IMG/VR virus record: IMGVR_UViG_3300021964_000015
Length of the DNA: 64,000 nt
Source: a virus
Reading direction: 5' to 3' (one strand)
Below the pieces are notes generated by a model. The model was not told the DNA's origin. It saw nothing but the letters and a program-made list of their open reading frames with translations, and ran no database searches. Positions 3,643 to 62,141 of the stretch are shown piece after piece; the stretch's first letter is position 1, and every line of letters begins with the position of its first letter. The translations under genes were made by a program, and so were the position numbers.

Positions 3643-4146
3643 TGGTGAAATGCGATTGAATTGTGCTACGTTTAACGTCCAGCTCGACGTAATACCTAAC
3701 TAAAAACAGTATTAACTCTGGTATAATTCACTGCTTGTTGCAGTGATTAAACAACAAACTGTTCTTTCTGGCGAAAGGTGTAGCGCGGAGATGTCCAATA
3801 ATGAGCGCAAGTCAGGAAATGCTGACATTTCAAGGGTAAATTAACGTCAGCAGGTTACTTTCATCTAAATTCTCCTATAAACCCGCCCTCTCATTCATTA
3901 AACTAACCATTTATACTCACCACACCCTCTCTTTCTTTTTTTCTATACACATCTCGCGGCATACGGGGTATTACAGAAGCGTCAGAAAATTTTTTATCCT
4001 TTTTTGACCTATAAGGAGCCGCCGCCCGCAACAAAGGATGGGTCCCTGGAGCTACGTGACACGAATTAATAATTAAAATTGTCTAAAATACGAATTAATA
4101 ACGAAAAATTGTAGTCATACCAAGGGATTTGCCCAACTTAATAGAC

Positions 4147-4177
4147 AAAAAAGCCGGGGTCTTTTTCCCCGGCCTTT
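4147..4177 (-). terminator. intrinsic terminator
   Basis: gccgggg/ccccggc stem with an A6 tract on the plus strand, downstream of 4210-4419. Confidence 0.75.
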
Positions 4178-4209
4178 AACTAAGTTTTAATTAAGTTCTA
4201 ATTAAACTC

Positions 4210-4419
4210 TCATCTACGGGAATCTTTTGATTTTTTTGCAGCAACAGCTGCTTCAAAATAAGATTCTTTATCAGGACGTTGCCTTACTAGCTCTTCGCGT
4301 GCGCCAGAGATAAAATTACGTACATCAATCTCATCACCACCGCTATCTGCAAGCTTTTTCGCTTCATTTTCAATTGCTTCTAACGCAATAATGCGCTCAG
4401 CCCGGTTCTTTGGGTTCAT
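4210..4419 (-). CDS. hypothetical protein
   Basis: 69-aa ORF followed by a terminator. Confidence 0.7.
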   Translation of the reverse strand: MNPKNRAERIIALEAIENEAKKLADSGGDEIDVRNFISGAREELVRQRPDKESYFEAAVAAKKSKDSRR

Positions 4420-4531
4420 CGTAACGCAATCTACGGATATTTCTTGTGTTATTACTACTTTACCGCATATCTTTTTGCGTTATTGCCTTAAAATACAAAT
4501 ATCAGGTTAATCGATAGCAAATAATCTACTC

Positions 4532-6676
4532 ATGGCCCTATCTCCTGCTGATTTTGCTGCATATAGTCGTGCTACTGGTGCTCCATACCCAGAATCACCG
4601 CAGGAACGGGCCGAATTAGCTCCTGAGGTACTTGCATTCCGTCGTGGGCAACTTACACAACCCGAACAACAGTCAAATCTTCCTGCAATTCTTGGCGGTA
4701 CGGTATTAGGCCTTGGTGCATTAGGTGCTGCACTCGCAGGAACAAGAAGATTTGCCCGTGGTACCAAGACCCAAAGTACACCTCAACGTGATTTAGGTAT
4801 CGTTCGTCAGGCGGCCACTGGTCGGACTTCTGGTACTACTGCGCCTAGGACACCTGCGCCGCCCACCCCCGGCACCCCACCCTCTAGTGAGGGCGTAGCG
4901 CCTTCAAAAGTAACTGCAATCCCACAAGCAACGGTTGATTTAACTGACCTTACTCAAACTGATAGACCGCTTCCCTTTGGTGATCCATGGACTGGAGAAG
5001 CTGGCCCCCCTACTCCACTTATTCAAGGACCTATCTCTGCCCAGCAAAATCTTCAAAACTTTCTTGGTGAACCAACGCTGCCTTATAAAAGGACTGACTT
5101 ATCAGTAGCACGAACCCCTGGATCTTTCCTAGATTTTAGTAAAACTGCTAGCGGTGAAGCCGCTGTCGAAAATTTAATTAACGACGTAGAGCTTAAAAAA
5201 CTTGTATCTCAACAACGCCGTCAAGAGGGCGCTGAACTAGGCCGTGAAGCACAACGTCAAATGCGTATTGCTTCTGCTATTGAAACAGAAGCTGATGAAT
5301 ATCTCGCGCAATTACGTCAAGAATCCCTTTCTCAACAGGCATTTGGTGCCTTGCAATCTGGTGAAGATCAGATGATAGGTCGCACGATGCGTGGCGTTCA
5401 ACGCAATGAAGATCTTGATTCTTCTCAAGTAAATAGCGTTGTTCGTCAACTTGGCAGTGCAGATGCAGCTACATCTATCACTGCAGATGGTATTCCTGTC
5501 GATCAAACAGAAGGCTTCCGTGAGTTTAGCCAACGTGCAACTCAAAGAAAAAATCTTTTAGATGCACAATCTCAAATGTGGGCATTTGAAGAAGAGCTAG
5601 AAAATCAAGGACAAAAAGCACAAGCTTGGCTTAGAAAAATACAACAAAAACGGGAACCTCTTTTAGATATTGACTATCAAGTATATGATTTAATTGGTAG
5701 CGCTGCTGAAAAAGGAGTTCAACTTGAGCCCTCGCGTGCTCTTTCTTTACTAAAAGATCCGACAATTGAATTAACAGGCACAGAACAACGTCTGTTTGGT
5801 GTTGATCCTTTAATCGGTAAATTCGCTCTTAAAGGACAGACATTTGAGCCAAGGCAACAACAAACAGGTGCCTTTCTTGGTGTTCAGGGAGAATCTTTAA
5901 AATCGATTCAAAACGTAGGAGAAACACCTGGGTCCGGCGTAAGTCAAGCAGCTTCTGGTACCAGTATCCGAGGTCGTTCACGCATACCAAATGTGCCTGA
6001 TGACTCAAGGCCAAGATTAAGTTCTCTTGGGGCTCCTGTAACAGAAGATGTTGTTTTTATTGATGAAGGAGGAACTGTAACAGTTTCTCCTGGCGAAGAA
6101 CTTACCGAAATAGTTTTTGAATCAAAAGAACCTACTTATACGCGTTTTATTCGAGATCCTCAAGCCTCTCAACCACGACCTAAATTTTTTGCCCCCGGCC
6201 TTGCAAGTGCCGAACAGTTAAAACAAGGTTTAAAAGAAGAGTATGCTCCGAAAGGAATGCGAGCAGTTCAAACAGCAGAAGGAGGAACTTACTTTGTACC
6301 GATTGGAGACCCAGGGGGCATCGGTATATATGGAGAAGAACGAAGTTTTGCGTCTGGTCCAATCGTGAAATTTGATGATCCAGAACAAGAAAGAGTTGCC
6401 GGTGCATATACAAAAACTGCAATGCGTGCACCTACTGAGATGCCTTTCAAACAAAAACAAAAGGGAGGCGCTAATTTTAATGAGCTTTCTTCTCAGCAAT
6501 TACAATCTTTTATTGAAAAAGCACCGCAAGGTACAATGCGCGTTGCTGGACAAAAAGAACAAGCACGGCGCGAAAGAGTAAAACAATCTTTACTGGCTTC
6601 TGAGTTATCTCGTAGGGCTACAATTGAAGGAAGAGATCCGCAAATGATTTTACGCGAACGCGGTTTTAATGTTTAA
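4532..6676 (+). CDS. large low-complexity protein, putative internal virion protein
   Basis: 714 aa; N-terminal hydrophobic segment ILGGTVLGLGALGAALAG; Q/E/P-rich. Confidence 0.7.
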   Translation: MALSPADFAAYSRATGAPYPESPQERAELAPEVLAFRRGQLTQPEQQSNLPAILGGTVLGLGALGAALAGTRRFARGTKTQSTPQRDLGIVRQAATGRTSGTTAPRTPAPPTPGTPPSSEGVAPSKVTAIPQATVDLTDLTQTDRPLPFGDPWTGEAGPPTPLIQGPISAQQNLQNFLGEPTLPYKRTDLSVARTPGSFLDFSKTASGEAAVENLINDVELKKLVSQQRRQEGAELGREAQRQMRIASAIETEADEYLAQLRQESLSQQAFGALQSGEDQMIGRTMRGVQRNEDLDSSQVNSVVRQLGSADAATSITADGIPVDQTEGFREFSQRATQRKNLLDAQSQMWAFEEELENQGQKAQAWLRKIQQKREPLLDIDYQVYDLIGSAAEKGVQLEPSRALSLLKDPTIELTGTEQRLFGVDPLIGKFALKGQTFEPRQQQTGAFLGVQGESLKSIQNVGETPGSGVSQAASGTSIRGRSRIPNVPDDSRPRLSSLGAPVTEDVVFIDEGGTVTVSPGEELTEIVFESKEPTYTRFIRDPQASQPRPKFFAPGLASAEQLKQGLKEEYAPKGMRAVQTAEGGTYFVPIGDPGGIGIYGEERSFASGPIVKFDDPEQERVAGAYTKTAMRAPTEMPFKQKQKGGANFNELSSQQLQSFIEKAPQGTMRVAGQKEQARRERVKQSLLASELSRRATIEGRDPQMILRERGFNV

Positions 6677-16646: not shown

Positions 16647-18923
16647 ATGGCGGACGCTAGAGCCCGGCTTCAAGAAATTATCAATGCCTATCTGGATAAA
16701 GATAGCAACATTGTTGTTGATACGGGCATTGTTGCGTCCCACGTAGCACAAATGAAACTTTTTGGCATTCGCCAAGGAGTTGAATTCTTTGCAGGCCAGG
16801 ATAACTTTGGTGCCCAACGAAAGGACTTTATCGATCGCGTACTAAAGTACAACAAGCTTGATACCCGTTTGGATTCCATCTGGGAATACTTTTTATGTGA
16901 TGGAAAAGGTCTTTTTTACATTCGGCCAACCAAACAGAACTATCGGCTTTACTATTTTCGTGATCACGAATATCGTGCCTATTACAACGTTGATGGCGAA
17001 CTTGATGAGGTTGTAATCATCTATAGCTATAAGGTACGTAAAGGCAACGGTTTCGGCGAAGCAATTAATACGACGAGTATTTCAGGTACACAAAGTACTT
17101 ATAGCCCTGGAGCAAAACGCTATATTCGTTTATCCATTAAAGGAAGAGAAATTGAAGAAACTCATTCTGATGCAGAGTTAAATTTTGATATGCCCACTTA
17201 TGCCCTAACGGGCAATACAAAGAAGTTAAAAAATAGTCTTGGTTTTATTCCATGCGTTGAGATCATCAACAATGCCCAAGGCTTCTCCAATGAAGGGGTG
17301 GGTGAATTTGACCACATGGCAAATCACATCTGCACCCATGATGATTTAATGCGCACGATGCGCAAGAACATTACCTTCTTTGGTAATCCAACATTGCTTT
17401 CTTCTCGGCCTAAAACCGATTTGATGGAAGCAGGTGGTGATATGTCCGTTCAACGGCCCTCTATTGCTGCTAACTCAGGTTTCATGAGCCCTTCGCCCAT
17501 GAGCCGTTCCATGTTTAAAGCTGATCCAGTCAGCCGTGGCATGGATGGTCAGATCAGGGTTCCAAGAGTTATTGCAAACCTGGAACCAAACGATCGTGTT
17601 GGTTATATTGTTCCAGATGCTATTACAGGTGATCAAAACGCATTTGCCCGTCAGTATCGGGAAGAGATCCGTACCGCTCTTGGTGGCGTGGATGAGTTGT
17701 CAATTTCTGCAGGTGTTACTGCAACTGAATACAAATCATTGTTTGGCCGCGTTGCCGCCACATCAAAGAAGAAAGCAAACGCCATTTACACCCACGGTAT
17801 TTGTCGTTGTCTAGAACTTATTATTTATCAAGAAGAGCAACTGTTTAAAACAACACTTGCGGCTGCTGCTGGTATGGAGAAACCAGTTGAATTACCTGAT
17901 GATGCACCACCTGAACAACAGGCTGCATACGAAGATGCATTAAGTCAATATAACGAACAATTGAAGAAACTTATGTTAGCTTGTGTGGAAACTCAACAAA
18001 TACCACCAAGTGTTGTTGGGTTAATTCCTGATGGGGATCTAACTGTTTTATGGCGTTGGCTTGGTCCCGTCTATGAAGATTCCACGCAAGATATTCTTAA
18101 CAACTCTATTGTTGTAAGAAACCTTCAGGAATTAGGTGTTGATAGCATTGAAGCACTGAAGTACCTCTTCCCTTCTAAAACGGATGAGGAAAGAGCCGAG
18201 ATGCTATCTGGGTTCCCATTCAGGATGGTGAACGAATTGCAGGGTGCTTACTCTCAATTTGCTCGTCTAGTGGGGGGAATGATGCAGACTCCTCACCCGC
18301 AAGCACCGGATCTACCGATGGCTGCGGATCCCAGATTGGATCTAACACCATATCTGTATCGAACATTAGAAGCCTTACAAAAGGAGATGAGTTATGCAGG
18401 ACGCTACCGTCCAATCGATCCCACAGACGAGCCAAGTTCCGGCAGCGGTGGCTCCGAGCAGCTACGTGGCTCCGGCTCCGGCGCAAGCTCCAGTGGCAGC
18501 ACCAGTCCAGTATCAGGTGGGTACCAGTTACCCTCAGGCGGTACCACAGGCAGCCCCCAGCTACCAATCAGCCCCTACGCAGTACGCCCCCCAATCCCAA
18601 CCGGAAGCCCAGGGCAACCCATGGGAATCGGCGTTCAACAAGGTGGTGAATCTGCTGAGCGCACCAGTTCAATCCCCGTTCCAGGGTCAACCGTCTCAGA
18701 CGACGCAATACAGTCCAGCCAACTACGGCCAGCTGCCCAGCAACCTGGGTACGCAACAATCGGCTCCGCAGACCTCATTACCCAACCAGGCCTACTCGCC
18801 CAACTCTTCCCAAACTTCCTCGATTCAATCATTGGAGGACGTAGCGGATCTCCTGGATTGGAGCCCGGAAAGCCGGAACGTGGTAAGCGCGTACGGAACA
18901 GAAGCTCCCGCAATTCTAAATAA
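16647..18923 (+). CDS. portal protein with low-complexity overprinted C-terminal extension
   Basis: size and position between TerL and capsid; portal-like pattern (LGFIPCVEI...GEFD...ITFFGNPTL...EIRTALGG); AAGGAG RBS. Confidence 0.75.
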   Translation: MADARARLQEIINAYLDKDSNIVVDTGIVASHVAQMKLFGIRQGVEFFAGQDNFGAQRKDFIDRVLKYNKLDTRLDSIWEYFLCDGKGLFYIRPTKQNYRLYYFRDHEYRAYYNVDGELDEVVIIYSYKVRKGNGFGEAINTTSISGTQSTYSPGAKRYIRLSIKGREIEETHSDAELNFDMPTYALTGNTKKLKNSLGFIPCVEIINNAQGFSNEGVGEFDHMANHICTHDDLMRTMRKNITFFGNPTLLSSRPKTDLMEAGGDMSVQRPSIAANSGFMSPSPMSRSMFKADPVSRGMDGQIRVPRVIANLEPNDRVGYIVPDAITGDQNAFARQYREEIRTALGGVDELSISAGVTATEYKSLFGRVAATSKKKANAIYTHGICRCLELIIYQEEQLFKTTLAAAAGMEKPVELPDDAPPEQQAAYEDALSQYNEQLKKLMLACVETQQIPPSVVGLIPDGDLTVLWRWLGPVYEDSTQDILNNSIVVRNLQELGVDSIEALKYLFPSKTDEERAEMLSGFPFRMVNELQGAYSQFARLVGGMMQTPHPQAPDLPMAADPRLDLTPYLYRTLEALQKEMSYAGRYRPIDPTDEPSSGSGGSEQLRGSGSGASSSGSTSPVSGGYQLPSGGTTGSPQLPISPYAVRPPIPTGSPGQPMGIGVQQGGESAERTSSIPVPGSTVSDDAIQSSQLRPAAQQPGYATIGSADLITQPGLLAQLFPNFLDSIIGGRSGSPGLEPGKPERGKRVRNRSSRNSK

Positions 18924-19347
18924 TTATGCTCTCCAGCTGGAAGATATGCTGGATAGTGCTGTTGCCTGGGGTGGCAAAGCACAAGAACTGCTGAATGGCT
19001 ATGCCGAATTCAGTGTTAATGAGCACCAGGAGAACCTGGCATATAACGAGATCCTGACCAATCCCGATGTACTTAGCGATTACACGCTGAAGTTCTTTGG
19101 TCCTGAAGGTCCCTATCCTGTGTATGAGGATGAGGCACAATTGGAAACCCGTGGTTATCCAACCGCACCGATTGATTCTGCCCTGGGTCAATTCCCTGCT
19201 CCTCCTACTGCAGCAGCTCCTCAGCAACCTGAAAACTTCTGGGGCAGCTTTAAGCAACAAATGGATGTGGATCCCAGCCAGGCATGGCGTCTCCTGAATA
19301 ACGCTCAGCCTCAAGTGGTTTCCAACAAACTGTTTGTAATGGAGTGA
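18394..19347 (+). CDS. putative capsid scaffolding protein
   Basis: Q/P-rich N-terminus, acidic helical core, AAGGAG RBS upstream, lies between portal and capsid. Confidence 0.65.
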   Translation: MQDATVQSIPQTSQVPAAVAPSSYVAPAPAQAPVAAPVQYQVGTSYPQAVPQAAPSYQSAPTQYAPQSQPEAQGNPWESAFNKVVNLLSAPVQSPFQGQPSQTTQYSPANYGQLPSNLGTQQSAPQTSLPNQAYSPNSSQTSSIQSLEDVADLLDWSPESRNVVSAYGTEAPAILNNYALQLEDMLDSAVAWGGKAQELLNGYAEFSVNEHQENLAYNEILTNPDVLSDYTLKFFGPEGPYPVYEDEAQLETRGYPTAPIDSALGQFPAPPTAAAPQQPENFWGSFKQQMDVDPSQAWRLLNNAQPQVVSNKLFVME

Positions 19348-19807: not shown

Positions 19808-19840
19808 GCTTAAAGCTTATTACCTGCTAGAATTTGTTTT

Positions 19841-19865
19841 AGATAAGACACATGTGTCTTTATCT
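19841..19865 (+). promoter_or_regulatory. 5' leader hairpin after capsid promoter (TGnTAGAAT, -10 at 19828-19833)
   Basis: agataagacacatgtgtctttatct palindrome; GGAGG RBS at 19891. Confidence 0.55.
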
Positions 19866-19905
19866 TTCACCCGATAAAAACACTGACACTGGAGGATAAA
19901 CTAAA

Positions 19906-21895
19906 GTGTTCATTGATAGCTAGTTCAGATCCTGGTAGGTATGTCCCTTCAAGATTTGGTAAATAGCTCCGTGATTACAGTTAAATTTTTCAGCAATTTT
20001 TCTATAAGAAAGACCTGCTTCTTTTAAAGATTTAATTTGTTTCACGTCATCCGAAGAAAATTTTCTCAAAGATTTCTTCGGCTTTCCTTTACTGGCAAAA
20101 CCATTGTTTTTGTAACAACCGTTTTCCCAGGCTCTTGTTAAATTTTCTTGTTTGGTAACGATCTCAAGATTAGCAAGTTGATTATTTCTCTTGTTGTTAT
20201 CTTTGTGATCAATCTGTAGGGAAAAGTTACTGGTTCCATGAGAACGCAGATCTAATCCTAAAAAAGCAATTGCCATCAAGACGTGAAGATGAAATCTTTT
20301 TCTCTTTCCATCTACAAGAACTGAAATACGGTCGTAAACACTGGTGGAACTAATAGGAATCTCTAGAAAATATTCTTGATTATCGGGATCAAGTTGTTTT
20401 TCAAAAGCTTTCCCTTCTTCCGTTAAGTAAAGATTACCAAATCCTGGAACAAGTTTTGGATTCATGTTGTTTATAAACAGGTTTCCAGACTGTAGCACGC
20501 CTCAACTGAACGCTCAACGTTGTCACCTCACCAAGCAATTGATGAGTGCAAACCGGATGAATTCAGGGAAGCCCTAACGTAAAGACGAGGGTAATCCTGA
20601 GCCAAGCCAATCAAGAACGTGATTGGAAGGTGCAGAGACTACTGGGGGTAACACGATCTTGTTACGTAATACCAGATTCAGCGTCCGGCATCCCACAGGG
20701 ATGAAGAGATAGTCCACCCCTCTAAGAAACTAGAGACCAGGAGAACGATTTTCCAAAGATTTTAGGTGCGGAACTTTATCGTCCTCACCCTGCTTATGTC
20801 ACCGAAATGGCTGTGGAGCCCGTGGTTGTCCACGACTTCACTCGTCAGCCCGGTCAAACTGTTCAGTTAGATCGCTATAAGTTCTGGGGTACCCCTGGTA
20901 CGAAGGATAGCCGCGAGCGTATCTCTGACCAGACCATTGGTACTGCCAACAGCCGCAACATCACCAAGGAAAAGGTGCTTGTTGTGCTGAAAGAATACAC
21001 CGGCCCTGCTGATCCGGGTGATCCCACTCAGCCCAGCACCTTCAAAATTGCTCGTGAAACCCTGATTACCGCCCAGCGTCTGCTGCTGGATACCGGTAAC
21101 CTGAACATGTTCCACCAGAGCATTGGTTCGCTGACCCTGCTCGATGATTATCGCCGGTGGCGTGATCGTGTGTTCATTGATGAACTTGCCAAAGCAGAAG
21201 CAAACGGTGCTGCCTCCACCACACAAGGCGGTTACTACTTCGCTGGTGCCAAGGAAAAGAATGCTTCCGGTCAAATCACCTATAGCGTTGCTGAGTACCA
21301 AAGCCAAACTCAGCAGTTCCAGGTGCGTACTGACCTTCTGACCGTTGTTAAGGATCTGCGTAAGCGTAACGTTCCTACCTTCGCTGATGGTCTGTATCGT
21401 TGCATTTGCGATCCCGTCTTCATGATGCATCTGCGTCGTGATCCTGACTTCCGTGAGATCGCTCGTTACGCTGGTACCCCTGGCCAAGGCATGTACATGG
21501 GTAATCCCATGATGCCTAACAACGCCAGCTTCTACATGGGTCCCCAGGCTGGTCAAGGTTACTTCCTTGCCGGTGAGCCGGTGATGCCTACTGGTGTTCA
21601 GTTTGAAGGTGTGAAGTTCTTCGAATCGACCAACTTCCCCATCAAGAACGTCAACGCTTCGTTCGATGCTGGTTCCACCTACACTTCCCAGGAAGTTGCC
21701 CAAGGTTACTTCTTTGGTCCTCAGTCGATTGGTGTTGGTATCGGCGGCCCGAACGCTCAGGTGCTCATCAACAACAACGACGACTTCAGCCGCTTCATCA
21801 TCCTGATCTGGCAACTGTATGCTGGTTTTGAAATCCTGAACAAGGACTTCGTTACCACCGCGTTCAGCTTCATCCAAGACGATGGTACCGTCTGA
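19906..21895 (+). CDS. major capsid protein, spliced: exon 1 19906-19917, exon 2 20744-21895
   Basis: GGAGG then GTG TTC ATT GAT joins in frame to AAC GAT TTT..., giving MFIDNDFPKILGAELYRPHPAYVTEMAVEP...; strongest high-expression codon bias in the window; follows portal and scaffold. Confidence 0.88.
19920..20465 (-). mobile_element. intron-encoded HNH homing endonuclease (antisense)
   Basis: HLHVLMA...IDHKDNNKRNNQLANLE HNH motif plus C-terminal HTH; probable start MNPKL at 20465. Confidence 0.9.
20489..20517 (-). promoter_or_regulatory. sigma70-like promoter for the intron HNH
   Basis: TTGAGC-N17-TACAGT with extended TG. Confidence 0.6.
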
Positions 21896-24829: not shown

Positions 24830-25558
24830 ATGACAGAACGCGAATTACTACAAAGCTACGTTTCAAGACCTGCCATCCAGAACGCATTGCGAGTTATTCG
24901 TTTTGCGGAAGGTACTGAACGTGGCGGACCCGATTCCTATCGCGTCATGTTTGGCGGTGGCTTGGCACCTGATCTAAAGCGGCATCCAGACAAAGTTATT
25001 GATGGAGGACGCTATAAAAGTGCAGCTGCTGGTGCATACCAATTCATGCCCTTTACCTGGGAGCGACAAGCAAAAGCACTAGGCTTATCTGATTTTGGTC
25101 CACAGAATCAAGATCTTGCTGCTACACGTTTGTTGCGTAATCGCTTGATGCCTATCGGTGGTTTATCAACCCTTGAAAAAGAAGGTTTTAGCCAGCGTGT
25201 ATCCTCTGCACTAGCACCAGAATGGGCTTCTCTTCCCACCGAAAGTGGTGAGAGTTTCTACGGCCAACCTGTTAAAAAACTTGCTGATCTCCAGAAAGTT
25301 TTTGGTCAGCCACAAGAAACACAAACGTTTGGGGCCACAACTCAACTTACAAAAAAACAAGAAAGAAAATTAAAGAAACAGCTTCAAAATCCCCTGGGTT
25401 TACCTGTCAGTATCAACATTAATTTATCTGGTGAAGAAGAGGCAAAACCTGAAGCCCGTTCTTTTCTTGATACAATGAAAGGACAAGTGATGCAATCACT
25501 ATTCCAGCAACGTCAACCGTTTGGCCTACAAGAAGTATTAGGCTTGCTTGGTCAATAA
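24830..25558 (+). CDS. lambda-R-like (GH104) lytic transglycosylase, probably virion-associated
   Basis: IRFAEGT...Y.VMFGG...HP...SAAAGAYQF...TW...QDLAA...EWASLP...YGQP. Confidence 0.9.
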   Translation: MTERELLQSYVSRPAIQNALRVIRFAEGTERGGPDSYRVMFGGGLAPDLKRHPDKVIDGGRYKSAAAGAYQFMPFTWERQAKALGLSDFGPQNQDLAATRLLRNRLMPIGGLSTLEKEGFSQRVSSALAPEWASLPTESGESFYGQPVKKLADLQKVFGQPQETQTFGATTQLTKKQERKLKKQLQNPLGLPVSININLSGEEEAKPEARSFLDTMKGQVMQSLFQQRQPFGLQEVLGLLGQ

Positions 25559-25621: not shown

Positions 25622-26212
25622 TTATTTGGGTTTTACGTGGCTACCTCCTTTGCCATCATGCCGTTCTTTTGAAAATGCTTTGTCAAGGGGCCATTCATTA
25701 TTAAGGCGTTTTTGCATTGATTGAGGAGATATTCCAACTTCTTTAGCCCAGTCGGCAATGCACATTGTCTTACCTTCAAAGGTATAAAGTCTAGTAGCAC
25801 GCTTCCCTCCTCGGTTGCGTGTCTGCTCTTTTCTTGTAGCCCATCGACAATTTTCTTTGCAGTAGTTTTTATCGTTTTCAATACGCTCTAGTTCCATCTT
25901 GGGATCTGGTTTTTTACCCATGTCTGCTAGGAACACCGTAAAGTCTTCCCAAGAAGGGTCGTAGGTTATACCACGGGCGCCATAACGTTCATAATGGGTT
26001 GTGCCAATACAATTGCAACGGTTTTTCATTGCGCACCATGAACCGTATTCTGGTGTTTTATCTCTGTTCCCACCATGTTTGAAGGAAGCGCAGTTTTTTG
26101 AGCAATAGACATACCCTCTATCTCGCAAACGCTTACGATGCCAAGCTGCGGTATTCCCTTGGCGCTCATAAAACTTGCCACAGCAAGCGCACTGAAAAAT
26201 TGTTTGTGCCAT
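25622..26212 (-). mobile_element. free-standing HNH-type homing endonuclease
   Basis: YGSWCAMKNRC...YGARGI...FLADMG...LERIENDKNYCKENCRWAT, with N-terminal Zn-finger CxxC...YCSKNC. Confidence 0.88.
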
Positions 26213-26261
26213 TAGAATAAGAGAAGTTTTCGGAGGCCCCTGTCAAATTAGCAGAGACAGG

Positions 26262-27053
26262 GTGTTTAGTCAAATATCCAGTACTAGCACGAACAAGCAA
26301 CCGCTCCTGGTTGATAGGCCGCTTTTTGATTCGGTTCGTGTAACCACTCAAACTGTTGGTAGTTCTACTGCCAATACACTTTTTGTGCAAGGTGGACAAG
26401 CACCCTCTATCCTCGTGGATATGGATGCTGCACTACAAGAAGATAACAACAGTGGTGGCGTGGTTGATTCAATTACCATTACTCGTAATGACTTCTATCG
26501 TCCTGCTGATTACACCGTAAATACAGTCACATCTGGCAGTGTAATTTCTCTTGTTAGCGGTCAAGTTGTTTTTGTTGCTGAAACAGGTGTTGTTACTCCA
26601 GCTCCTGCAAGTGGCTACGGCTATTACACCTATACAGGTGCAACTACCCTGACAGGTGTTAATACATCTTTTGAGTACTCAGGCGGATCTTCTTCAGGTT
26701 TCCTCTATAACGGTGTAGCCTGGGGAGATCAACCCAACGTTACCTTTGTCTTCTACCACACCCGTGGTACGACAACACCTATCCCTGCATCGGGTGACTA
26801 CCGTGTACTCTTTGCAAAAACAGTGCCAGCAGGTAGTGGTACTGTTGATTGCTCTGATCTCCTTCCTCAGCTTGCAACACCTGTTGTTGGCGCAGGTAAC
26901 ACAAATGGCCTTGGTCCCACTGCGCCTCTACGCAACAAAGGCATCTACCTGGAGCGTGGTGATCGCATTTACGTTGGTGTGTTCCCTGATGGTTTGAATA
27001 TTTCTGGTTACACACCAGGTGCTCACGTAACCGCACAAGGCGGATTCTTCTGA
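26262..27053 (+). CDS. structural protein (tail/nozzle-like, beta-rich); start uncertain
   Basis: T/G/V-rich 263 aa ending GIYLERGDRIYVG...AQGGFF. Confidence 0.7.
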   Translation: MFSQISSTSTNKQPLLVDRPLFDSVRVTTQTVGSSTANTLFVQGGQAPSILVDMDAALQEDNNSGGVVDSITITRNDFYRPADYTVNTVTSGSVISLVSGQVVFVAETGVVTPAPASGYGYYTYTGATTLTGVNTSFEYSGGSSSGFLYNGVAWGDQPNVTFVFYHTRGTTTPIPASGDYRVLFAKTVPAGSGTVDCSDLLPQLATPVVGAGNTNGLGPTAPLRNKGIYLERGDRIYVGVFPDGLNISGYTPGAHVTAQGGFF

Positions 27054-59991: not shown

Positions 59992-61503
59992 ATGCCATAT
60001 GTATTTAATCCCTTTACAGGGAACTTCGATATTGTTGATACTAATACAGCAGCTGGTTCAGATACCCAGGTGCAGTTTAATGATGGCGGTACGTTAGCAG
60101 GAGATACAGCATTAACCTGGAACAAAACCAGTGATCAACTTACGGTCGGCGGCGACATCAACCTCGACAGTGGCGGCAATTTTTCTACGACCATTCAATC
60201 GGTCACCCCAACCGCCAACCGCACCATCAGCTTCCCAGACCAAACCGGCACCGTCGGCCTCGTCTCTGGAGCAACCGGAAACATCCAGTACAACAACGCC
60301 GGACAACTGGCAGGCACTGCAGATTTAAATGTCAGTCTTGACTGGACAAATGCTGCTATTGCATACACCGGCTTAAAGGTTAATGTAACTGATACTGCTA
60401 GTGCTGCTGGTAGTAAGCTTTTTGATCTTCAAAGCAATGGCACTAGCCAAGTATCAGTTGATTCCTCTGGTTCTCTAGAGGTAGCTTCCGAACTGGTAAA
60501 CAGCATCACCGTTGGTCGGGGCGCAGGCGCGATTAGCTCCAATACAGCAGTCGGCAGCGGTGCGCTTCAGGCGAATACCACTGGCATCAACAACACTGCC
60601 AACGGAGTCAGCGCCCTTTCCTCCAATACCACTGGTAACAGCAGCACTGCTACCGGATACCAAGCCCTCCGCTCCAACACCACTGGTAACAACAACACTG
60701 CTAACGGATACCAATCCCTTTTATCCAACACCACTGGTAACAACAACACTGCAAACGGATATCAAGCCCTCGTTTTCAACACCACTGGCTCCAGTAACAC
60801 TGCTAACGGACTCCAATCTCTCTACTCCAATACCATTGGTGCTGCCAACACTGCAAACGGATTCCAATCTCTCTACTCCAACACCACTGGTAACAACAAC
60901 ACTGCTAACGGACTCCAATCTCTCTACAACAACACCACTGGTAACAACAACACTGCTAACGGAAGCAGCGCCCTCTACTCCAACACCACTGGCAACAGCA
61001 ACACTGCTAACGGACGCGAAGCCCTCTACAACAACACCACTGGCGCAGGCAACGTTTGCCTCGGCAGTCTGAACAACGCCGGTACATACGCGCCAGTCTT
61101 CGACTGCACCACCGAAAACAACCGCGTGGTAGTTGGCAGCACTGCTGTTACCAATGCTTACATCCAAGTTGCATGGACGGTTGTTTCAGACGAACGAGAT
61201 AAGACCAACTTTGATCTTGTCCCCCACGGGCTTGATTTCGTCAAGCAGCTCAACCCTGTCGCGTTCCAGTTCAAGGAATCTCGCGATTCGGATATTCCTC
61301 ACGGTCCAGTGCGCTATGGCTTCAAAGCGCAGGACATCCTGGCACTGGAGGGTGACGACAACGCTGTCATTATTGACAATGAAAATCCAGATAAACTGCG
61401 CTATAACGGCGAAGCACTGGTGCCTGTTCTTGTTAATGCCATCAAGGAGCTTGCAGCCGAGAACGCTGCACTGAAAGCACGCCTGGATGCCGCTGGCATT
61501 TGA
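59992..61503 (+). CDS. tail fibre with 14-aa repeats and C-terminal S74 intramolecular chaperone
   Basis: NTTGNNNTANGxxAL repeats; SDERDKTN cleavage motif; GFKAQD...LVNAIKEL. Confidence 0.9.
   Translation: MPYVFNPFTGNFDIVDTNTAAGSDTQVQFNDGGTLAGDTALTWNKTSDQLTVGGDINLDSGGNFSTTIQSVTPTANRTISFPDQTGTVGLVSGATGNIQYNNAGQLAGTADLNVSLDWTNAAIAYTGLKVNVTDTASAAGSKLFDLQSNGTSQVSVDSSGSLEVASELVNSITVGRGAGAISSNTAVGSGALQANTTGINNTANGVSALSSNTTGNSSTATGYQALRSNTTGNNNTANGYQSLLSNTTGNNNTANGYQALVFNTTGSSNTANGLQSLYSNTIGAANTANGFQSLYSNTTGNNNTANGLQSLYNNTTGNNNTANGSSALYSNTTGNSNTANGREALYNNTTGAGNVCLGSLNNAGTYAPVFDCTTENNRVVVGSTAVTNAYIQVAWTVVSDERDKTNFDLVPHGLDFVKQLNPVAFQFKESRDSDIPHGPVRYGFKAQDILALEGDDNAVIIDNENPDKLRYNGEALVPVLVNAIKELAAENAALKARLDAAGI
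60535..61060 (+). repeat. 42-bp coding tandem repeat (about 12 units)
   Basis: aacaccactggtaacaacaacactgctaacgga units. Confidence 0.85.
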
Positions 61504-61529
61504 TCCTTTCATTTTTGAAGCTCTAAACC

Positions 61530-62141
61530 ATGGACACACTCACCGTTACGATCACCAACACCCGCACCATTGACGGCCTGATTTTTGCCGCCAATAGCGC
61601 CAAGCTTTCGCCCGAGGATTACGCCACCTGGCTCCTCACGCAAGACGGCAAACGTTACGCCGACGCCAACAGCTACGGCATTGTGACCAGCGCTGGTTTC
61701 TTCGCACGCTTCACTCCCACTGAATACGCCAACATCTTGGCCGCAGCAGAAGATACCACCGTGGTGCCTGATCCAATTGGTGGCATTCCTACTGCAGCAG
61801 AACAACAGGCATACGACGACGCCGTTGCTAAGTTTGCAGCAATCCCGGATCCTACGCCTGAGGATATTGCCGAGTACGAAGCAGCAGTTGCCGCTTACAA
61901 GGCAGCTTGCAAGCCTGATAACGAAGCCGAGATTGAAGCAGCTGAAAAGCAGAATGCTGATGCTGCTGAGATTAAAGCGTTGATTGATGAGCTTACTGCA
62001 GCAGAACGTGTGGCACTTGATGACCAGCGCGTGACTGATGCATTGGCTCTCTTGGTACAACGCAATTTACTTGCTCCTGATCGTCCTGCAGAGATCGTGA
62101 AGTATGACCGCCCGTTTCCTGAAGTGAATGGAGATGCGTGA
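61530..62141 (+). CDS. tail fibre assembly-like protein
   Basis: FFARFTPTEY...DDQRVTDALALLV..NLL...R..EI. Confidence 0.65.
   Translation: MDTLTVTITNTRTIDGLIFAANSAKLSPEDYATWLLTQDGKRYADANSYGIVTSAGFFARFTPTEYANILAAAEDTTVVPDPIGGIPTAAEQQAYDDAVAKFAAIPDPTPEDIAEYEAAVAAYKAACKPDNEAEIEAAEKQNADAAEIKALIDELTAAERVALDDQRVTDALALLVQRNLLAPDRPAEIVKYDRPFPEVNGDA

Follow-up and report, generated by a model that had tools for sequence, protein, structure and literature searches.

A freshwater cyanophage carries, in the P1 loop of a group I intron of its capsid gene, a backwards homing endonuclease gene with a probable promoter of its own

The major capsid gene discussed here lies in a 64,000-nucleotide (nt) stretch of viral DNA (IMG/VR record IMGVR_UViG_3300021964_000015), analysed at its full length and called the window throughout. 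By its sequence, the source is a freshwater cyanophage of the S-EIVl-like kind. The gene is split by a group I intron (19918-20743, plus strand), and within the loop of the first helix of that intron, P1, a homing endonuclease gene (19920-20465, minus strand) runs backwards with respect to its host. The reference relative, Synechococcus phage S-EIVl (KJ410740), matches the capsid region at 83% identity in DNA and the capsid at 86% in protein, and the closest relative, G001, has the same locus at 99% identity. Around the intron, the genes from 4532 to about 33200 are nearly all on the plus strand, and the order upstream of the capsid is that of a portal-size protein (16647-18923), then two small proteins, then the major head protein. 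As read from the sequence, the capsid gene opens (19891-19917, plus strand) with a ribosome-binding site, GGAGGA, at 19891-19896, a GTG start at 19906 and a 12-nt exon 1, GTG TTC ATT GAT; it continues after the intron with exon 2 (AAC GAT TTT and so on, 20744-21895, plus strand), which is 86% identical to the S-EIVl capsid open reading frame (ORF) and the product of which belongs to PHROG 1357, 'major head protein' (1.9e-16). The product of the spliced gene is a major capsid protein of 387 residues. The same start and the same first four codons (MFID) are found in S-EIVl and in 49 intronless relatives, the S-EIVl gene being uninterrupted and opening with GTG TTC ATT GAT ACC GAC TTT CCT.

The intron is 826 nt long, has the P7.1/P7.2 insertions of the IA type, and is recognised by its Rfam match, by comparison with intronless alleles and by covariation. 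Model RF00028 scores 91.2 bits at 20465-20736 on the plus strand (gathering score 50), where it finds the single group I intron of the window, and 90-94 bits in the relatives L006, L008, L081 and L083. The capsid gene is split between its codons 4 and 5, with U19917 as the last exon base and G20743 as the last intron base. When viral contigs were scanned with the capsid protein, 80 loci came up, and 49 of them read GAT|AAC with nothing between; it is because the intronless alleles read so at exactly that junction that the borders can be set at 19918 and 20743. Two such alleles, L005 and L007, read GTG TTC ATT GAT|AAC GAT TTT, the insertion site being GTGTTCATTGAT|AACGATTTTCC, and on either side of the junction L005 matches the window at 99-100% identity. 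Removal of 19918-20743 reproduces GAT|AAC base for base as in the intronless alleles, restores the host frame and yields MFID-NDFPKIL, equal in length to the MFID-TDFPKIL of S-EIVl. Left unspliced, the frame runs from GTG 19906 through TTC ATT GAT into a TAG stop at 19921-19923, and resumes with AAC GAT TTT CCA at 20744. Unstranded contigs from two metatranscriptome studies join 19917 to 20744, skipping exactly 826 nt, a joint that splicing would produce but that is no proof of it, since intronless strains with near-identical flanks (L005) exist.

The folding of the RNA was followed in 23 distinct intron variants from two clades, in which 78 proposed pairs were scored, 21 of them with compensatory double changes. 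The 5' strand of P1, UGAU|AGC (19914-19920, plus strand), pairs with the guide GUUGUCA (20519-20525), as supported by the pair counts and by the fold of a natural ORF-less form of the intron (L008, 276 nt); U19917 and G20522 make the wobble pair at the 5' splice site, all seven pairs are standard in 23 of 23 variants, and the pair 19914-20525 switches from U-A to C-G. Two unpaired bases further on begins a second helix, P1a, in which GUUCAG (19923-19928, plus strand) pairs with CUGAAC (20506-20511, plus strand), closing a loop of 577 nt. Here the arms come in the versions GTTCAG/CTGAAC, ACTCAG/CTGAGT, GCTCAG/CTGAGC and GCTTAG/CTAAGC, with compensatory double changes in three of the six pairs and standard pairs in all 23 variants, so that P1 and P1a together have 13 of 13 pairs standard in every variant and four of the 13 changed on both sides. 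The minimum-energy fold of L008 forms the same P1 and P1a. A reading of the locus made beforehand from the letters alone, which we call the sequence-only reading, had paired the flanks of the ORF through both these arms and an AGC/GCT extension: the six-pair helix with its 577-nt loop stands and covaries, and the extension does not. An AGC/GCT helix (20512-20514) is possible in the window, but the relatives carry GGT, AGT or ACT there, and in the minimum-energy fold of L008 the AGC belongs to P1 proper, where it pairs with GUU of the guide 20519-20525. The internal guide as a whole (20518-20525, plus strand) may serve both exons: GUUGUCA forms P1, and CGUU (20518-20521) can form P10 with AACG of exon 2 (20744-20747), with pairs that are all standard in 23 of 23 variants.

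Downstream of the guide, the ribozyme core (20527-20743, plus strand) is laid out by the Rfam alignment, the fold of L008 and the pair counts. Its helices are P2 (20527-20534/20539-20546, with a GCAA loop and compensatory changes in five of seven pairs), P3 (20553-20559/20682-20688, two of seven), an invariant P4 (20563-20568/20595-20600), P5 and P5a (20571-20592, P5 being invariant), P6a (20607-20613/20620-20626, two of seven), an invariant P7 (20637-20641/20710-20714), P7.1 and P7.2 in IA-type order (20642-20675), P8 (20689-20694/20698-20703, two of six) and P9 (20720-20724/20731-20735, two of five).

The loop closed by P1a holds most of the endonuclease gene. The minus-strand ORF extends over 19920-20498, and its conserved start is the ATG at 20465 and not the GTG at 20498, which leaves 181 codons and a TAG stop (19922->19920). 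The sequence-only reading had seen an HNH ORF on this strand, between the 5' splice site and the internal guide, with its stop within 5 nt of the splice site; this is borne out by Pfam HNH_3 (9e-9; 35 bits, cut-off 24.8) together with HTH_38, by PHROG 59, 'HNH endonuclease' (3e-26), and by the placement of RF00028, and the stop turns out to lie 2 nt from the splice site, overlapping P1. The motif DH(K/I)D...NN...NLE is kept in 31 of 31 variants, and H87, N94, N95 and N99 are invariant in the alignment. By sequence, the best solved relative is the endonuclease I-HmuI (PDB 1U3E, E 8.6e-7, 22% identity), which is also the sole significant fold match (E 1.6e-7, probability 1.00, TM-score 0.5) of an AlphaFold model with a predicted local distance difference test score of 86.6, in which strands occupy residues 12-59, the HNH motif 83-114 and three helices 138-172. 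The 31 distinct ORFs fall into two clades, about 37% apart in protein sequence; all are intact and all end at the same TAG, and with a ratio of nonsynonymous to synonymous substitution rates (dN/dS) of 0.10-0.12 the gene is, by this measure, under purifying selection.

It is worth emphasizing that the end of this gene and the beginning of the intron are the same letters. P1a and P1 are complementary to the final codons (Y Q D L N/S stop), the 5' arm of P1a lying opposite the last two (Leu-Asn), and the gene's 3' end is therefore doubly constrained. The change of the P1a arm from GTTCAG to ACTCAG is, on the other strand, an Asn-to-Ser change at the C-terminus of the endonuclease. Likewise, the palindrome CTAG at 19920-19923 provides a stop on both strands, and reads CTGG in the ORF-less intron.

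At the other end of the gene, directly upstream of its ATG, a small palindrome, TTGTTTATAAACAA, occupies window positions 20466-20481 on both strands and is kept as TGTT...AACA or GTTGT...ACAAC in the two clades. It could act as a mask of the start codon in the endonuclease mRNA, as in the intron endonucleases of T4, or as an element of the loop in the ribozyme RNA.

How the intron is spread among relatives was assessed in 66 loci found through the capsid protein, hence unbiased toward the intron: 49 are intronless, one has the ORF-less intron and 16 have an intron bearing the endonuclease gene. On a tree of exon 2 that leaves out the 60 nt adjoining the insertion site, the intron state changes at least 13 times, at least nine of these changes being forced by well-supported branches, and sister alleles 0.5-1% apart but unlike in intron state are found in the pairs L006/L007, L034/L035 and window/L005. 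Relatives of the endonuclease at 59-66% identity led to a second capsid clade, where the intron sits at the same site in 23 loci, again with the backwards gene (here of 176 codons) and its promoter-like motif; in the loci so gathered the layout is a common one in this phage lineage. Alleles with the intron, whether ORF-less or not, share a haplotype of about 70 nt upstream of the insertion, and most intronless alleles have another, which is compatible with co-conversion during homing. Patchy distribution and flank haplotype fit an actively homing element; frequent loss, or recombination of the capsid gene, could have contributed to the pattern.

Several observations on these alleles may be recorded here. 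When the capsid 5' leader (19840-19905) is compared among L001-L082, two haplotypes appear: intron-bearing alleles read GACACATGTGTCTTTATC, without some 7 nt (TTCCTGC), and intronless ones mostly GACATATCAATGTCTGAATC. Hairpins are more perfect on both strands of the intron-linked leader, among them a terminator-like stem downstream of the endonuclease stop (19883->19854, minus strand), found by consensus scan and followed by a weak U-tract, the 11 base pairs of which are perfect only in the intron-linked haplotype. This haplotype may stem from co-conversion, or may signal the 3' end of the endonuclease transcript. The natural ORF-less intron (L008:1824-2099, 276 nt) has a 28-nt hairpin as its P1a loop, keeps 20 nt of the intron 5' end, including the complement of the YQDLN codons, and has CAG in place of the TAG stop; its loop aligns weakly with the endonuclease-bearing forms, and it may be either the ancestral form or one derived by deletion. 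In the close relative L006 (2116-2937), identity to the window is 95-100% in the flanks and the endonuclease gene but only 87% in the ribozyme core, a pattern that suggests recombination inside the intron. Further away, a relative of the endonuclease at 55% identity (P0101, European Nucleotide Archive ERZ21989563) is again turned against a capsid-size gene, across a 630-nt gap, and is followed, in the same direction, by a LAGLIDADG_2-like ORF, and this locus may be an intron with two endonuclease genes.

The same distribution can be looked at in another way, with the endonuclease kept mainly as a weapon against the capsid gene of co-infecting intronless relatives, and the spread of the intron as a by-product. 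In phage PhiPA3, an endonuclease encoded in an intron interferes with a phage that co-infects the cell (PMC11620839), the target in our case would be an essential and highly conserved site, members of the lineage co-occur in many metagenomes, and about a quarter of the capsid-sampled alleles (16 of 66) carry the endonuclease-bearing intron. Sequence data cannot separate such a role from plain homing, however, and the two readings are not mutually exclusive; as the main reason for the upkeep of the gene, we regard warfare as possible, if rather unlikely.

Expression of a gene turned against its host calls attention to what lies upstream. A promoter is predicted, on the basis of conservation, at 20489-20517 on the minus strand, with a -35 element TTGAGC (20517->20512) and an extended -10 element TGcTACAGT (20497->20489), and transcription of the endonuclease gene would start near 20482. 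The sequence-only reading had noticed TTGAGC-N17-TACAGT built into the pairing arm: the motif is there, and its 17-nt spacer does contain the 3' arm of P1a, yet its hexamers reach just 8 of 12 consensus positions. More telling is the pattern TGnTAnnnT, kept in 24 of 27 distinct upstream sequences with its five specified positions fixed, when each of the three inner positions of the -10 hexamer takes all four bases among the 27 variants; from this motif to the start codon there are 23-26 nt in all variants. In the second clade the -35 element is TTGACC or TTGACT, nearer to consensus. The composite TTGA-N14-17-TGNTANNNT occurs twice in the 64 kb, against 4.15 occurrences expected by chance, and its second occurrence (26273->26245) is 33 nt upstream of the other minus-strand HNH gene of the structural module. 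With the same class of motif before both genes, with its conservation and its constant distance to the start, we incline, as the sequence-only reading did, to the view that the endonuclease gene has its own promoter, and hold this to be likely.

That other gene deserves a description. It lies at 25622-26212 on the minus strand, has 196 codons, belongs to PHROG 3377 (1.7e-43) and is free-standing, with a lysin-like gene (24830-25558) on one side and the plus-strand gene that follows on the other. In its region (25622-26273), TTGACT-17-TAATTT with a TG extension is found 33 nt before the ATG, and a hairpin with a U-run after the stop. Both endonuclease genes of the structural module are oriented against the module, the second being its only other minus-strand gene.

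We consider it probable, on the whole, that the locus is a mobile group I intron of the capsid gene into the P1 loop of which a homing endonuclease gene has been inserted backwards, with its own promoter. The anatomy of the locus, its conservation, the purifying selection on the gene and the patchy distribution of the intron are the basis of this reading. The activity of the promoter, that of the nuclease with its target, and the reason for the orientation are what we infer from it.

A number of points weigh against it. The cut-off of the consensus hexamer scan was 9 of 12 positions, which TTGAGC-17-TACAGT, with its 8, does not reach, and the same scan found promoter-like sites in the region no more frequent than in shuffles, so that the presence of the hexamers alone amounts to no more than chance. 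The TG is absent in three of the 27 variants, and the spacer is 15 nt in one subclade; conservation of the -35 element says little, because this element overlaps sequence needed for the function of the intron. Before the endonuclease ATG no clear Shine-Dalgarno sequence was found, nor was a convincing terminator for the gene. The minus-strand start is a predicted one, the RNA evidence consisting of unstranded contigs of public runs, and the RNA-library joints from 19917 to 20744 could stem from intronless strains with flanks as close as those of L005. Finally, nuclease activity, target and nicking are ascribed to the protein solely by its likeness to I-HmuI.

These points might be pushed further, to a backwards gene with no promoter of its own, silent or reached by read-through only, hence a decaying passenger, the TGnTAnnnT pattern then reflecting RNA structure in the loop or common descent. 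The weak hexamers would agree with this, as would an RNA-library contig (X1, 20437-20646) which crosses the putative promoter and tells us that some RNA or DNA there starts elsewhere. A decaying gene is nevertheless hard to reconcile with a dN/dS of 0.10-0.12 and with 31 distinct ORFs intact over two deep clades; the neighbours of the T, G, T, A and T positions vary and these five do not, the same motif precedes the other antisense HNH gene, and the patchy distribution of the intron demands an active nuclease or very frequent loss. We find a gene without a promoter of its own very improbable. Other RNA-library contigs, also unstranded, have coverage over the endonuclease region and none over the ribozyme core (runs X2 and X4), and contigs of three studies end at 20501-20513; nothing is concluded from such holes and ends, because assembly graphs break where conserved meets variable sequence.

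If we return to the mobile intron with a promoter-bearing backwards gene, and take it as a start point, a coherent course of events may be proposed. The late capsid pre-mRNA, made from the plus strand, would carry the intron. P1 would join the last exon bases and the first intron bases to a guide some 600 nt downstream, and the 6-base-pair clamp of P1a would seal off the 577-nt loop, allowing the ribozyme to fold and splice, with GAT|AAC rejoined. As the intron begins 12 nt after the first base of the start codon, a ribosome on RNA not yet spliced would be placed on the exon side of P1. An in-frame TAG, the second codon of the intron (from 19921), would stop any such ribosome, and translation of unspliced RNA would yield no more than a five-residue peptide. 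On the opposite strand, the host RNA polymerase would start at the extended -10 promoter, located in the loop beside the 3' arm of P1a and the guide, and the minus-strand transcript would encode the 181-residue, I-HmuI-like HNH-HTH enzyme. During mixed infection this enzyme would nick or cut intronless capsid alleles near GAT|AAC, and the intron, along with about 70 nt of the flank upstream, would then be copied in by repair. As for the backwards orientation, its most likely use is to uncouple expression of the endonuclease from the very strong late transcription and translation of the capsid gene, and to keep ribosomes off the ribozyme.

The sequence-only reading went one step beyond this, proposing that the endonuclease transcript, which it took to be early, is also antisense to the capsid pre-mRNA and could delay splicing or translation. 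As a regulatory RNA, this transcript would pair with the loop of P1, with the 5' splice site and, it may be, with the capsid ribosome-binding site. Geometry permits it: the endonuclease gene ends 2 nt from the splice site and, because no good terminator is present before 19891-19908, its transcript would be complementary to P1, to P1a and probably to the translation start. There is also a possible parallel in cyanophage S-PM2, for which a paper that PMC3428280 cites deals, by its title, with an antisense RNA that links psbA and the gene of a homing endonuclease. Yet a plain passenger gene explains all the conserved features (ORF, promoter, P1 and P1a), and the ORF-less L008 and 49 intronless alleles show that expression of the capsid needs no such control. 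Regulation of this kind appears to us quite improbable, and a delay that would last until the endonuclease promoter falls silent is improbable to the same degree. Pushed to its limit, the idea makes of the whole cassette a switch of convergent transcription or antisense RNA, built into P1: endonuclease RNA, or polymerase traffic, would keep P1a, the 5' splice site and the start of capsid translation covered and hold the capsid back, and promoter shut-off would let P1 form and the capsid mRNA mature. We give little credence to such a switch; were it real, the other backwards HNH gene of the late operon would fall under the same scheme.

Comparison with known systems helps to see what is particular in the mobile intron proposed here. 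The nearest is mycobacteriophage LittleE, where a leftward gene, gene 14, lies inside a capsid intron that is spliced efficiently as seen by reverse transcription PCR (Pope et al., 2013, PMC3706429); the GenBank record (JF937101) annotates the capsid coding sequence as joined, with gene 14 on the minus strand inside. As in our case, a major capsid gene is split by a group I-type intron with a homing endonuclease gene on the opposite strand. In LittleE, however, the ribozyme core comes first (a weak Rfam hit at L201 3859-4062) and gene 14 follows (4065-4598), so that the gene is in a 3' peripheral position and not in the P1 loop; the host lineage and the endonuclease are others, the intron is not four codons from the start, and the paper (PMC3706429) discusses neither promoter nor P1 overlap. 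Among eukaryotes, the nuclear ribosomal DNA intron Dir.S956-2 of Didymium iridis carries I-DirII antisense to the ribozyme and with its own promoter, as summarised in reviews of the original work (Johansen et al., 2006; reviewed in PMC3073962 and PMC3679873), which also list P1 among the loops where nuclear introns carry homing endonuclease genes. The likeness of I-DirII to the capsid-intron gene lies in this antisense orientation and separate promoter. Its promoter is an RNA polymerase II promoter, though, its message has a spliceosomal intron and a poly(A) tail, the endonuclease family is different, and the host gene encodes a ribosomal RNA, so that translation of the host transcript is no issue.

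Phages offer further parallels for the parts. The HNH enzyme I-HmuI, from the DNA-polymerase intron of the Bacillus phage SPO1, is encoded on the sense strand and nicks in a strand-specific manner. It shares with the capsid-intron enzyme the layout of an HNH domain with a C-terminal helix-turn-helix (HTH), within a phage group I intron (PDB 1U3E). The two proteins are only 22% identical, and strand-specific nicking is a presumption for the latter. The T4 introns of td, nrdB and nrdD (I-TevI to I-TevIII), to be seen together with the 'core creep' idea (PMC2988022, PMC3073962), are also of IA type, with endonuclease genes looped out from a peripheral helix, having their own promoters and ORFs that reach into the ribozyme structure. 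These genes are sense-oriented, in P6a or a similar helix, with late promoters and hairpins that mask the ribosome-binding site, whereas the endonuclease gene of the capsid intron overlaps ribozyme structure from the other strand, with P1a and P1 complementary to its last codons and stop. I-TslI is another HNH endonuclease with its gene in a group I intron of a phage. Its ORF is said, in an abstract of 2004, to be located in P6a. The sequence-only reading had invoked it as a precedent for inverted genes, which finds no footing in two papers (PMC1995217, PMC3428280): they list I-TslI as the HNH endonuclease of the 601-nt DNA-polymerase intron of the T7-like phages PhiI and W31 and say nothing of an inversion, so that on their strength it should not be quoted as an inverted case.

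In the literature we found no description of a capsid intron in S-EIV1-like cyanophages, and a search for phage group I introns with antisense endonuclease genes produced no direct match; a 2025 survey of Bastillevirinae introns does not mention orientation. Backwards homing endonucleases in phage introns thus come down to one brief published mention, that of LittleE. We know of no mechanistic study of them, for which the present intron would be a good subject. The layout is real, and it is a further, well-populated case of a rarely described arrangement already known from LittleE.

In the S-EIVl record KJ410740, the intronless capsid gene (L001 3018-4244) is split: a minus-strand 'hypothetical protein' (60784-61545) spans its first part, and only the last 471 nt are given as a plus-strand coding sequence. 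A single ORF of 383 codons (L001 3093-4244) matches the capsid, and the annotated antisense ORF across the S-EIVl capsid gene is spurious. In the window itself (16647-19347), the portal-size ORF (758 codons) shares about 530 nt, read in a different frame, with the next listed ORF (18394-19347), the true start of which is probably later.

Several consequences follow for those who work on these phages. Gene callers shorten an intron-split capsid gene of this kind to begin at an ATG inside it, and list the endonuclease as a solitary hypothetical gene. Phages of this lineage are widespread; a cultured relative, S-EIVl, which grows on Synechococcus PCCC-A2c, is intronless. Nature provides a three-state allelic series, with no intron, with a 276-nt ORF-less intron, and with an 826-nt intron that contains the gene. 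In the last of these states a single stretch of DNA is at once P1 and P1a of a ribozyme and the last codons and stop of a protein, and the predicted promoter of that protein adjoins it.

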